Assembly (NCBI GenBank): GCA_043785755.1
Contig: JAYVWV010000033.1
Span: forward strand, 1 to 50,458
Length of the DNA: 50,458 nucleotides
Direction of reading: 5' to 3'
Source: Candidatus Moraniibacteriota bacterium
GTDB taxonomy: Bacteria > Patescibacteriota > Minisyncoccia > Moranbacterales > UBA1568
Every line of letters begins with the position of its first letter. Position 1 is the first letter of the stretch. The notes under the pieces are model-generated. The model had not been told where the DNA came from. It saw nothing but the letters and a program-made list of their open reading frames with translations, and did not search any database. The position numbers and the translations under genes are program-made. Below, piece by piece: positions 43,721-47,596 of this stretch.

Positions 43721-46700
43721 ATGAAGTCAATATTTGAAGGCTTGACGAATCAGTATGCGCTCTCCAAGACGCTCCGTTTTGAGTTGCGACCTGTTTTGAA
43801 TACGAAGCAGATGCTCGTGGATAATAAGATCATCGAGGAGGATGGTATTCGAAAAGAGAAATATGAAAAGGCGAAGTTTTATTTCAATCGTCTGCATCGT
43901 GAATTTACGGCAGAGGCGCTGAACGATATCAGATTTGATGATCTTCACGAATATTTTTCTACCTTTCAAGTATGGCAACAAAACAAGAAAGATAAAAAAT
44001 CTTTGGAGACTCTTCAAAAAAAGGAAAAGAGCTTGCGACAGGAGATCACGAAGAAATTTAATGAACATGCGAAGCTGTGGACAGATAATCAGTATGCTCA
44101 TCTGAAGTTGAAGAATAAAAGCGTGGAGCTCTTTTTTGAGGAAGCTGTTTTTTCTCTTCTGAGTGATCGGTATGGCTCTGAAGAGGACGCTCACGTTTTG
44201 AATCGTGAAACGGGAGAAATAATTACTTTGTTCGCTGACTGGAAGGGATTCACCGGGTATTTTAAGAAGTTTCATGAAACACGAAGAAATTTCTATAAGG
44301 ATGACGGTACGGCAACGGCAATTGCCACGCGGATAATCGATCAAAATCTCCGAAGATTTTGCGATAACAGTATCGTGCTTGAGAGGATCAGGGAAGTAAT
44401 TGATTATTCGGAGGTTGAGAAGAATTTCGGAAAATCATTGGATGATATTTTTTCTTTGGATGCCTACGACGGATATGTTCTTCAGGATGGTATTGATCTG
44501 TACAATCGGATTCTCGGGGGAGAAACTCTTAAGAATGGAGAAAAGAAAAGAGGTATCAATGAATTGGTAAATAAATATCGTCAAGATCATAAGGGAGAAA
44601 AGCTGCCATTTCTCAAGACTCTTGATAAGCAAATTTTGAGCGAAAAAGAAAAGCTTGTGTTCGGTATAGAAACCGATGAGGAATGTTTCGATGTGCTTTC
44701 TATATTTTATAAGAATGCTGCTGAAAAAATAGCGCTTCTTAAGAATCTTCTCGATAATTTCGTTTCAAAAAATGAGAGCTTCGATCTAGAAAAGATATAT
44801 GTTTCGCGAGAGGCACTGAATACTATTTCACATCGGTGGATCGATGATGGCCAGGTGTTCGAACAATCCCTTTTCCGGGTCTTCAAAGAGGCAAAAGATA
44901 AGTCTGCTGAGTACCAGGTTGAGGATGAAGCTTTTTCATTTCCTGATTTTATAGCGCTCGACCGTGTGCGACTGGCTCTTGAGGGATCGCCTAATCCGAA
45001 GGCGCTTTGGAAATCAAGATACTACGTGCAGGAGGAAAATGAAAGTAGTTTCGGATTTTTGTCGGGTGATACGTCATCCTGGAAACAGTTCTTGCTTATT
45101 TTGAAAAATGAATTTGAGAGTCTTTTTACAAGAGTGGAGACCGATAAAGTGACCGGGGCCGAATATGTTGCGGGCTATGACCGATCTCTGTTGGCGATCG
45201 AGCAACTCTTGAACTCCCGAGAGCAGAGGCTTAATTCGGATGAAAAGGTCGTCATCAAGAATTTTGCAGATGATGTGTTGCGCATCTATCAGATAGGAAA
45301 ATATTTTTCTTTGGAGAAAAAACGCGCGTGGAACACTGAGTACGATCTCGATTCATTATTTTATGTTCATCCGGAGATGGGGTACATGCGGTTTCACGCG
45401 CATGCATATGAAATGATCGTACAGAAATACAATGATCTGCGGAATTATCTGACGAAGAAACCGTACAGTGAGAAGAAATGGAAATTGAATTTCGAGAATT
45501 CGACTTTGGCGGCTGGGTGGGATAAAAATAAAGAATCAGATAATTCCGCGGTCATTTTGAGGAAAGATGGACGCTATTATTTAGGGCTGATGAGAAAAGG
45601 ATACAATAAGATTTTCGATCAGCGGAATGAGGGAGGATTGAAGAATGCTTTAGAGAATGGAAGCTACGAAAAGATGGTATACAAGCTTCTTCCCGGTGCG
45701 GATAAGATGCTTCCAAAAGTTTTTTTTAGTGCCTCTAATATTGGTTTCTATTTGCCATCTGAAAAAGTTTTAGAGATTAGAAATCATTCGAGTCATACGA
45801 AGGGTGGGCATCCGCAAAAGGGATTTGACAAAAAGGACTTTAATCTCGCGGATTGTCAGCGACTCATTGATTTTTTTAAGCAGTCCATTGCAAAGCATCC
45901 TGACTGGAAAGAATTTGATTTTCATTTTTCCGAAACTTCAGCATATGGTGATATGAGCGAGTTCTATCACCAGGTGGAAAATGGTGGTTATAAGGTTTCT
46001 TTCGATGAAGTCTCTCAATCATATATCGAGAAAAAGAATCAGGATGGTGAACTGTATCTCTTCGAGATTTACAATCAAGATTTCGCGAATGGAAAGAGGG
46101 GAAAGAAAAATCTCCACACGATGTATTGGGAGGCTCTATTTTCTCCCGAGAATACGGATGGATTCCCGATGAAACTCAATGGTGAAGCGGATATATTTTA
46201 TCGACCAGCAACTTTAAAAGAAAAGCTCGGCGAAAGAAGGGACGCCAAGGGAAACGTGCGCGTGGCGCATGCGCGGTATGCGGAGAATAAGATTTTCTTC
46301 CATTGCCCGATCACGCTGAATCGCGGAAAAGGGGTGTCGCGATATTTCAATCAGAAGATCAATGATCTGCTCGTGGATAATCCCGATATCAACATAATTG
46401 GCGTTGATCGTGGAGAAAAGCATCTCGCCTATTATTCGGTTATTAATCAGAATCAGAAAATTTTAGAAAGTGGCTCTCTGAATAAGATAGGCACTGTAGA
46501 TTACGCTGAGAAATTGGAAACGAAGGCGATGGACCGCGAGCAGGCACGGCGTGATTGGCAATCAGTTGAGGGGATCAAAGATCTGAAGAAGGGGTATATC
46601 TCGCAGGTTGTTCGCAGGCTCGCTGATCTTGCTATCGAATATAATGCGATCATCGTCTTGGAGGACCTGAATATGCGCTTTAAGCAGATCAGAGGGGGGA

Positions 46701-47596
46701 TAGAGAAGAGTGTGTACCAGCAATTGGAAAAGGCCCTCATTGATAAACTGAGTTTTCTGGTTGATAAAAAAGAGATTGATCCGAAAAAGGCGGGGCACTT
46801 GCTTCATGCGTATCAGCTAGCCGCACCGTTTGAGTCATTCCAGAAAATGGGAAAACAGACCGGCATACTTTTCTACACGCAGGCCAGCTACACTTCGAAG
46901 ATAGACCCGCTCACTGGTTGGCGACCAAGTCTGTATCTCAAATATGCAAACGCAAAAAAATCCCAGGAAGATATTTCGAAATTTTCCAGTATCGTATTCA
47001 ATGAAAAGGAAAATCGATTCGAGTTTCTCTATGATGTAAAATTCTTTCAGAATCTCAAGGAGTGGCCGGAGAATACCATCTGGACAGCGTGCTCGTGTGT
47101 GGAGCGTTTCCGGTGGAACAAAACGCTCAATCAAAATAAGGGCGACTACGAACACTATATAGATGTGACGGAAAATTTTAAAACACTTTTTGAGAAGTTT
47201 GGCATAGACAGCCATGTTGATATACAGAAACAAATCAAAGCATTGAAGATTGATGGTAACGAAAAGTTTTTCCGTGATTTTATATTTTTCTGGAATTTGA
47301 TGTGTCAGATTCGTAACACGGATCCCAGTAAGAAGAAGGATGATCCTACCGGTGATTTCCTGCTCTCCCCGATAGAGCCTTTCTTTGACAGTCGCCTGTC
47401 AGAAGTCAGTAAGTTGGGGCTTCCAAAAAATGGAGACGACAATGGCGCATTCAATATCGCTCGTAAGGGACTTTGTATTCTTGAGAAGATAGCGGCCTTT
47501 AAGAAAAAAGAAGGAAGTCTGAGGAACATGAAATGGGGCGACTTATATATATCGCATAGCGATTGGGATACGTTTGCCCAGAGAAAGCGCCCATAA
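43721..47596 (+). CDS. cas12a: CRISPR-associated endonuclease Cas12a (Cpf1), type V-A effector
   Basis: 1291 aa. Motifs seen:
- The N-terminus …YALSKTLRFELRPV… is Cas12a-typical.
- WED/PI region: LAAGWDKNKESDNSAVILRKDGRYYLGLM.
- Pre-crRNA RNase motif: IFFHCPITLN (His about residue 861).
- RuvC-I: IIGVDRGEKHLAYYSV (Asp about 896, codon 46406-46408).
- Bridge helix: W.SVEGIKDLKKGYISQVV.
- RuvC-II: AIIVLEDLN (Glu about 981, codon 46661-46663).
- Nuc region: …FLLSPIEPFFDSR….
- RuvC-III: GDDNGAFNIARKG (Asp about 1239).

There is no HNH insert. cas4-cas1-cas2 and a Cas12a-type array follow. Confidence 0.95.
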   Translation: MKSIFEGLTNQYALSKTLRFELRPVLNTKQMLVDNKIIEEDGIRKEKYEKAKFYFNRLHREFTAEALNDIRFDDLHEYFSTFQVWQQNKKDKKSLETLQKKEKSLRQEITKKFNEHAKLWTDNQYAHLKLKNKSVELFFEEAVFSLLSDRYGSEEDAHVLNRETGEIITLFADWKGFTGYFKKFHETRRNFYKDDGTATAIATRIIDQNLRRFCDNSIVLERIREVIDYSEVEKNFGKSLDDIFSLDAYDGYVLQDGIDLYNRILGGETLKNGEKKRGINELVNKYRQDHKGEKLPFLKTLDKQILSEKEKLVFGIETDEECFDVLSIFYKNAAEKIALLKNLLDNFVSKNESFDLEKIYVSREALNTISHRWIDDGQVFEQSLFRVFKEAKDKSAEYQVEDEAFSFPDFIALDRVRLALEGSPNPKALWKSRYYVQEENESSFGFLSGDTSSWKQFLLILKNEFESLFTRVETDKVTGAEYVAGYDRSLLAIEQLLNSREQRLNSDEKVVIKNFADDVLRIYQIGKYFSLEKKRAWNTEYDLDSLFYVHPEMGYMRFHAHAYEMIVQKYNDLRNYLTKKPYSEKKWKLNFENSTLAAGWDKNKESDNSAVILRKDGRYYLGLMRKGYNKIFDQRNEGGLKNALENGSYEKMVYKLLPGADKMLPKVFFSASNIGFYLPSEKVLEIRNHSSHTKGGHPQKGFDKKDFNLADCQRLIDFFKQSIAKHPDWKEFDFHFSETSAYGDMSEFYHQVENGGYKVSFDEVSQSYIEKKNQDGELYLFEIYNQDFANGKRGKKNLHTMYWEALFSPENTDGFPMKLNGEADIFYRPATLKEKLGERRDAKGNVRVAHARYAENKIFFHCPITLNRGKGVSRYFNQKINDLLVDNPDINIIGVDRGEKHLAYYSVINQNQKILESGSLNKIGTVDYAEKLETKAMDREQARRDWQSVEGIKDLKKGYISQVVRRLADLAIEYNAIIVLEDLNMRFKQIRGGIEKSVYQQLEKALIDKLSFLVDKKEIDPKKAGHLLHAYQLAAPFESFQKMGKQTGILFYTQASYTSKIDPLTGWRPSLYLKYANAKKSQEDISKFSSIVFNEKENRFEFLYDVKFFQNLKEWPENTIWTACSCVERFRWNKTLNQNKGDYEHYIDVTENFKTLFEKFGIDSHVDIQKQIKALKIDGNEKFFRDFIFFWNLMCQIRNTDPSKKKDDPTGDFLLSPIEPFFDSRLSEVSKLGLPKNGDDNGAFNIARKGLCILEKIAAFKKKEGSLRNMKWGDLYISHSDWDTFAQRKRP

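Follow-up and report, generated by a model that had tools for sequence, protein, structure and literature searches.

Organization of the locus and identity of the effector

The window analysed here, that is, the whole stretch of 50,458 nucleotides (nt) of contig JAYVWV010000033.1 from a Candidatus Moraniibacteriota bacterium, ends in a CRISPR-Cas locus of type V-A. All coordinates given below refer to the + strand of this window. The open reading frame (ORF) at 43721-47596 is cas12a and encodes 1291 amino acids (aa) plus a stop codon; its product is called the query in the following. Downstream lie a type V cas4 (47672-48220; cas4_PREFRAN, 200 bits), a type V cas1 (48238-49221; cas1_PREFRAN, 312 bits) and cas2 (49225-49503; 48 bits). 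A leader of 150 nt (49504-49653) separates cas2 from the CRISPR array (49654-50458), which runs off the contig end and contains 13 identical 36-nt repeats, GCCGAATGAGCCTATAAGATTTCTACTGTTGTAGAT, with 12 spacers of 25-27 nt and one partial spacer. The spacers are all unique. We found no anti-repeat, as would be expected for a trans-activating CRISPR RNA (tracrRNA), elsewhere in the window at up to three mismatches. The genes and the array make up a complete type V-A system, apparently a working one. Our reading of the query, to which we give a probability of roughly 80%, is that it is the effector of this system, with an intact DNase centre, and that it is non-canonical at the site where Cas12a cleaves precursor CRISPR RNA (pre-crRNA), this departure being a trait of its lineage.

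The original prediction for this DNA had taken exactly this ORF for a Cas12a, neither degenerate nor a transposon-type Cas12, and family, domain and PDB matches support that assignment. The query scores 971 bits on TIGR04330 (cas_Cpf1; equivalog cut-off 300), in a match that splits at residue 837, and it contains the five Cas12a Pfam domains PF18501, PF21918, PF22222, PF18516 and PF18510 (REC1, REC2, PI, RuvC_1, NUC). Its PDB matches include ReChb (E=9e-233) and FnCas12a (E=7e-214). An AlphaFold2 (AF2) model of residues 560-1291 reached a predicted local distance difference test (pLDDT) score of 78; a Foldseek search with this model gave FnCas12a (6i1l_A) as the best match (E=1.7e-58, TMq 0.71). 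The model and its Foldseek match confirm the Cas12a fold over these residues. All six motif strings that had been read from the translation are found there, and the four codons given for them are in frame and encode the residues named; the RNase label of one motif is mistaken (see below). The ORF encodes a bona fide Cas12a with the full domain architecture of the family (REC1-REC2-WED-PI-RuvC-BH-Nuc). Every hallmark of Cas12a membership that we read from the sequence, the modelled fold or the locus was found in the query, its array or the neighbouring genes, except the RNase triad and the A at position -19 of the crRNA.

The DNA-cutting centre

Residues of FnCas12a were mapped by reading HMMER alignments to 5ng6, in which the chain numbering is the native numbering plus 2. 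The RuvC triad was found to be complete. In RuvC-I, D896 (codon 46406-46408, GAT) of IIGVDRGE (residues 892-899) aligns with Fn D917 (chain 919). In RuvC-II, E981 (codon 46661-46663, GAG) of IVLEDLN (978-984) aligns with Fn E1006, and in RuvC-III, D1239 (codon 47435-47437, GAC) of NGDDNGAFNIARKG (1237-1250) aligns with Fn D1255 (chain 1257). The bridge helix starts at WQSVEGIKDLKKGYISQVV (946-964; 46556-46612), where W946 corresponds to Fn W971 (chain 973), and spans residues 948-973 in the AF2 model. The Nuc-domain arginine R1198 (47312-47314), in CQIRN, matches Fn R1218 (chain R1220), in LQMRN, and its column corresponds to As R1226. The segment SPIEPFFDSR (1216-1225; 47366-47395), in the linker between Nuc and RuvC-III, is homologous to Fn SPVADVNGNFFDSR; judged by this alignment, it is a conserved linker rather than a catalytic Nuc residue. 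In a 55-sequence alignment of relatives from the clade defined below, D896, E981, D1239 and N1199 do not vary, and conservation of R1198 is at least 90%.

The residues that contact the protospacer-adjacent motif (PAM) are largely kept as well. K604 (45530-45532), in GWDKNK-E, occupies the column of Fn K613, a PAM-contact lysine of the WED domain. In the LKL helix, K662-M-L-P-K666 (45704-45718) aligns with the columns Fn K667 to K671, which serve PAM reading and unzipping. The roles of the PAM-reading lysines, like that of F873 discussed below, are taken from published work (bioRxiv 10.1101/122648).

That the query would be an RNA-guided DNA nuclease is well supported, because the RuvC triad, R1198, W946, K604 and K666 are all conserved. 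The original prediction of an active DNA nuclease had placed the RuvC residues correctly, its bridge-helix and Nuc/RuvC-III segments are homologous to those of FnCas12a, and the prediction gains further support from CR_Cas12a, a functional member of the same clade (see the last section). We expect the query to bind its crRNA through the pseudoknot handle, to read a 5' T-rich PAM and to form an R-loop, in which the single RuvC site would cut both DNA strands. A staggered PAM-distal cut and collateral ssDNase activity would be predicted from the conserved RuvC and Nuc residues.

The pre-crRNA RNase site

The pre-crRNA RNase site of FnCas12a consists of H843 (acid), K852 and K869 (base), together with F873 (PMC11127173, PMC9508855, bioRxiv 10.1101/122648). 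In 5ng6 the corresponding sequence reads ...FYRKQSIPKKITH(843)PAKEAIANK(852)NKDNPKKESVFEYDLIK(869)DKRF(873)TEDKFFFH(881)CPITIN. The query has a much shorter WED-III loop here: residues 829-857, PATLKEKLGERRDAKGNVRVAHARYAENK (46205-46291), between FYR828 and FFH861, amount to 29 aa, where canonical Cas12a proteins have a median of 46. The loop is about 15 residues shorter than the one that carries the FnCas12a triad.

To locate the triad columns, we used three phmmer alignments (with Fn, ReChb and As), MAFFT L-INS-i and a profile hidden Markov model (HMM) of the canonical class, and all were concordant. The column of the catalytic histidine (Fn H843 / As H800) holds E838 (46232-46234) in the phmmer and MAFFT alignments. 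The segment with Fn K852 (As K809) is deleted in both kinds of alignment, and the column of Fn K869 (As K860) holds A849. H850 (46268-46270) falls in the column of Fn D870; besides H861 it is the sole histidine of the loop region, which makes it a candidate if the RNase site has been rewired. R852-Y853 (46274-46279) correspond to Fn R872-F873, and R852 is invariant in the clade. The profile HMM, for which 63 canonical loops were used, aligns with the query in two pieces and leaves residues 836-850 unaligned against 32 model nodes. By these alignments the canonical RNase triad (Fn H843/K852/K869, As H800/K809/K860) is absent from the query.

This bears directly on the view, held by the original prediction, that the query is a fully canonical Cas12a in which all Fn and As catalytic positions are conserved and the histidine of FFHCPITLN (859-867) is the one that processes pre-crRNA. 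The motif is present, its H861 (46301-46303, CAT) is invariant in relatives, and the overall family match is very strong. However, H861 aligns by phmmer with Fn H881 / As H872 and not with Fn H843 / As H800. In FnCas12a, H881 (in FFFHCPITIN) lies 38 residues downstream of the catalytic H843, and As His872 is listed among the residues that contact crRNA 2'-OH groups (PMC7470973). The H861A mutant that had been proposed would therefore probe a crRNA-binding residue, not the RNase site. With E838, a gap and A849 in the three triad columns, conservation of the Fn and As catalytic positions holds for RuvC and fails for the RNase. We now give the fully canonical view almost no credence, and a canonical RNase with H861 as its catalytic histidine is refuted at the level of sequence.

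A gap at As H800 is also visible for CR_Cas12a in a published supplementary alignment, on which the paper does not comment (PMC6892893). Chen et al. 2019 (PMC6509639), writing on Cas12a from the candidate phyla radiation (CPR), discuss only the RuvC residues. In the literature that we searched there was no prior description of a missing triad in CPR Cas12a, which does not prove it unreported.

The short loop marks a CPR-centred clade

We defined a short-loop clade by a WED-III loop of 26-45 aa between FYR and FFH, without a histidine at the Fn H843 position. The query, with its 29 aa and no histidine in that column, fits this definition. Among its nearest homologues, 116 had a loop that could be parsed, and 113 of these lack the upstream histidine. 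For a view of the whole family, representatives (50% clustering) were found with query residues 560-1291. Both the upstream histidine and K869 are present in 107 of 129, and the other 22 (~17%), which lack the histidine, K869 or both, all have short, non-canonical loops. In a midpoint-rooted neighbor-joining tree of 519 loop-flanking columns, with the loop excluded and no support values computed, all 32 short-loop sequences fall into one clade of 33 leaves. The single extra leaf turned out to be a mis-scored short loop. As far as this tree and the loop counts go, the truncation is a trait of a monophyletic, CPR-centred lineage and not a private lesion of the query.

The hosts point the same way. 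The related loci that we collected (L001-L041) are mostly from CPR metagenome-assembled genomes (MAGs). By GTDB genome, the short-loop loci belong mostly to Patescibacteria (Moran-, Dojka-, Peri-, Gracili-, Sacchari-, Gottesman-, Roizman-, Uhr-, Pace- and Wildermuthbacteria, and WWE3). Our sample of canonical loci comes from outside the CPR, for example from Bacteroidota, Planctomycetota, Lentisphaeria and Campylobacteraceae, plus Pseudobutyrivibrio. Arrays in the clade are diversified and reach 51 repeats.

Some observations on the clade stand apart from the loop itself. Five short-loop loci (L023, L028, L031, L039 and L008) are in MAGs labelled Gammaproteobacteria, Thiotrichaceae, Pseudomonadales or Methylomirabilis, which is either horizontal transfer out of the CPR or binning contamination. 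One Moranbacteria MAG, MJ130702B_bin-524, carries two Cas12a loci, L027 and L019. The repeat of L027, GCCAAATACACCTATAAGATTTCTACTGTTGTAGAT, is identical to the window repeat at 32 of 36 positions; its Cas12a is only ~53% identical to the query and has a different loop type, of 37 aa. Repeats and effectors may therefore exchange, or evolve at very different rates.

Outside the loop, the two strongest class-specific positions are R1068 (in TGWRP; 46922-46924), which is R in 94% of short-loop and 0% of canonical sequences (where V is commonest), and T1053 (46877-46879), where the canonical class has V. These were the sole class-specific hits at a strict threshold, apart from a few conservative changes, and we rejected them since neither is an obvious catalytic candidate. 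The RuvC lid (residues 983-997; 46667-46711) is LNMRFKQIRGGIEKS, with an RFKQ..GG.E core that is invariant in the clade alignment, unlike the LNFGFKRGR(F/Q)KVEKQ of FnCas12a, ReChb and Lb2Cas12a. It is also the least confident segment of the AF2 model. A clade-specific lid could alter the gating of the DNase.

The repeat changes next to the cleavage site

The window repeat carries the Cas12a 3' handle UCUACUGUUGUAGAU. It ends in TCTACTGTTGTAGAT, which folds as a 5-bp stem and has the pattern UCUAC-N3-5-GUAGAU. In the mature Fn, As and Lb handle, position -19 of the crRNA is the first nucleotide, and it lies directly 3' of the scissile phosphate. We read it four nt upstream of the stem start TCTAC in each repeat. 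It is A in 26 of 26 arrays of the canonical class. Among the 26 short-loop arrays it is G in 16, A in 7, T in 2 and C in 1, and the window array has G. The association of this nucleotide with the loop class is strong (Fisher p=1.7e-8, a value not corrected for phylogeny). The pocket at the cleavage site thus appears to have changed in the protein, where the loop is truncated, as well as in the RNA, where A(-19) is no longer invariant. Within the clade, no correlation between loop subtype and the nucleotide at -19 was visible by inspection.

Upstream of this position the short-loop repeats do conserve nucleotides, namely A at stem-relative -8 (25/26) and T at -9 (20/26), or about -23 and -24 in crRNA numbering. 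An ATA is conserved ~8-10 nt upstream of the handle stem. The 5' half of several short-loop repeats contains a small palindrome or hairpin (for example CTATA-CCT-TATAG in L009 and CTTAT-TCCTT-ATAAG in L030); the window repeat is without such a hairpin.

A number of points weigh against the reading of the query as a working effector with a lineage-wide change at its RNase site. Loop alignments are inherently uncertain; however the details are aligned, the region contains no histidines besides H850 and H861, neither of which is at the H843 position. The column of Fn K677, where lysine is the clade consensus, holds S672 in the query. The covariation of the repeat with the loop could instead reflect co-evolution with Cas1-Cas2. 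Finally, an exact search of viral and metagenome contigs with eight spacers (20-24 nt, 5' parts) gave no protospacers.

Some of these points would also fit a locus in decay, in which the effector would no longer function and the loop deletion, a K851A change and S672 (Fn K677 column) would be signs of this. The lack of protospacer matches in that search is in favour of it, as are the departures of the query from the subtype consensus at the conserved loop positions A830, R847, A849 and A851. On the other hand, the ORF is uninterrupted over its 1291 aa, the query has retained all residues that do not vary in the clade, the RuvC triad among them, the genes cas4, cas1 and cas2 show no damage, the 13 repeats have 100% identity and unique spacers, and the truncation of the loop is clade-wide. 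We regard decay or inactivity of the locus as very unlikely.

How the crRNA may be matured

How a Cas12a of this kind obtains mature crRNA can be approached from the conservation of its loop. The 29-aa loop subtype (n=58 distinct loops) conserves K835, L836, G837, K/R839, D841 and G844. Position 850 is H in 41 of the 58, position 851 is K or R in 57, and R852 is present in all 58. In the AF2 model, residues 838-840 and 846-848 form a beta-hairpin, with H850 immediately after it. A rewired site that uses His850 plus Arg/Lys is plausible because of this subtype conservation and the modelled beta-hairpin before H850. Cas12a would then trim its own pre-crRNA within the remodelled WED-III beta-hairpin, at a site composed of H850, the basic residues R839, R840, K843, R847 and R852, and the aromatic Y853. 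Cas13a and similar class 2 effectors process pre-crRNA without a catalytic histidine, so that metal-independent cleavage based on Arg/Lys is feasible. The likeness is one of analogy only, as the folds and sites are unrelated.

Several results speak against a rewired RNase. In the 55-sequence alignment, the stretch from R828 to R852 has no column between these two residues that is invariant clade-wide, and three loop architectures, of 27, 29 and 35 aa, coexist in the clade. Within the subtype, 29% have N, R, K or S in place of H850, and the query is the sole member with Ala at the otherwise K/R position 851. A search of 560 loop-flanking residues for a compensating class-specific His or Lys found none. 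Taking the two sides together, we would put self-processing by a rewired WED-III site, the route that we favour, at slightly under an even chance.

An alternative is that the DNase is active and self-processing has been lost: Cas12a would bind the repeat handles along the long transcript, and host endo- and exonucleases would trim the unprotected RNA on both sides. This would agree with the absence of all three catalytic RNase residues, with the lack of an invariant loop column across the clade, with the lost constraint on A(-19) beside the scissile phosphate and with the Ala of the query at 851, the best-conserved basic position of the loop. Moreover, the published activity of CR_Cas12a was obtained with a single crRNA, so processing was not needed (PMC6892893). 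Against loss, the arrays of the clade are long (up to 51 repeats) and diversified, and the locus has no gene for another RNase. Conserved basic residues are still plentiful in the loop, 71% of the subtype have a histidine there, and the 5' flank of the repeat keeps A(-8) and T(-9), which suggests that something still reads it. Maturation by host nucleases is, in our view, somewhat less likely than a rewired site, and the rest of the probability goes to another or an unknown route.

A broader form of this proposal can be stated for the whole CPR-centred short-loop lineage, about one-sixth of the representatives sampled: it may have given up effector-catalysed pre-crRNA processing, which is regarded as a hallmark of Cas12a, and yet work as an RNA-guided DNA nuclease with long, diversified arrays. 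We offer it tentatively and consider it rather doubtful as it stands. If it is true, maturation would depend on host nucleases that trim around the protein-protected handle, and the short-loop clade could represent either a secondary loss or a state that preceded acquisition of the RNase loop.

Self-processing of crRNA arrays sets Cas12a apart from Cas9 and underlies multiplexed editing. For the query, or for the short-loop clade, it should not be assumed by homology; where CPR orthologues of Cas12a are mined for array multiplexing, processing needs checking first. If the clade uses a different catalytic arrangement, as in the rewired site that we propose, it is a natural experiment in rebuilding a metal-independent RNase site. 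If processing has been lost, the standard account of type V-A crRNA biogenesis does not apply to a large share of the family, one dominated by the CPR. As a DNase, the query is ordinary.

Surroundings of the locus and its host

The stop codon of cas12a and the start of cas4 are 75 nt apart, and this interval contains a terminator-like hairpin (47625-47657) with a perfect 14-bp stem, GAAACAGCCAATGG / CCGTTGGCTGTTTC, a loop of 5 and then the T-run ATCATGTTTT. It resembles an intrinsic terminator or attenuator, and as such would uncouple expression of the effector from that of the adaptation genes. In a promoter and terminator scan the counts were at shuffle expectation, and only this hairpin stood out. 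The leader contains a 16-nt inverted repeat (49580-49595 / 49625-49640) whose arms are 94% complementary and 29 nt apart; a further 13 nt separate it from the first repeat. It could form a leader structure or bind a protein, with relevance to transcription or spacer integration.

The LepA encoded in the window shares 86-91% identity with its counterparts in Candidatus Moranbacteria MAGs. The GC content is 40-44% across the cas locus (44000-50458) versus 48-55% in the rest of the window. The V-A locus was probably acquired horizontally by a Candidatus Moranbacteria (Patescibacteria/CPR) genome, an origin that is consistent with the lower GC content of the cas locus. Long ORFs on the + strand tile positions 1-43636 almost without a break, among them a murJ-like gene (38630-40285) and lepA (41819-43636), and this strong strand bias fits a small CPR genome. 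Between these two genes, the 1.5-kb stretch 40286-41818 contains only a 164-aa ORF (40962-41456), for which NCBIfam gave no match. Across the whole 50-kb window, scans for Rfam families and tRNAs were negative.

Comparison with known Cas12a proteins

FnCas12a (Francisella novicida Cpf1; PDB 5NG6, 6I1L, 8Y0B) has the same domain order and fold as the query, with ~43% identity over the C-terminal 730 aa. The query keeps its columns D917/E1006/D1255, R1218, W971, K613, K667 and K671. Differences are concentrated in the loop, which is 46 aa in FnCas12a versus 29 in the query: H843 is replaced by E838, K852 is deleted, K869 is replaced by A849 and D870 by H850. Elsewhere, K677 is replaced by S672, and the lid reads RFKQIRGGIEK in the query versus GFKRGRFKVEK in FnCas12a. 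The FnCas12a repeat has the same 3' stem-loop handle as that of the query, and position -19 is G in the query array and A in Fn. What we take to be the Fn repeat is identical to the window repeat at 26 of 36 nt.

Closer to the query is CR_Cas12a from Candidatus Roizmanbacteria GW2011_GWA2_37_7 (Liu et al. 2019, PMC6892893), which belongs to the same short-loop clade and the same 29-aa subtype (KLESKKDKKGNKVIDHKRY) and likewise comes from a CPR host. It corresponds to our sequence P0037, ~55% identical to the query, and to locus L035; its loop ...KKDKKGNKVIDHKRYSENK in the supplementary alignment of PMC6892893 is the same as that of L035/P0037. CR_Cas12a was functional in editing of galK in E. 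coli (PMC6892893). The result favours DNA targeting by short-loop Cas12a and has no bearing on processing. CR_Cas12a keeps the subtype consensus H-K-R-Y, whereas the query has H-A-R-Y, and its repeat, GAATTTCTAC, has A at -19, unlike the G of the query array.

With AsCas12a and LbCas12a (PDB 5B43, 5XUS) the query has RuvC, Nuc, the bridge helix and recognition of the crRNA handle in common. As H800/K809/K860 are without counterparts in the query. The same holds for the Lb triad, presumably H759/K768/K785. AsCas12a has a long insertion in the very loop in which the query has a deletion.

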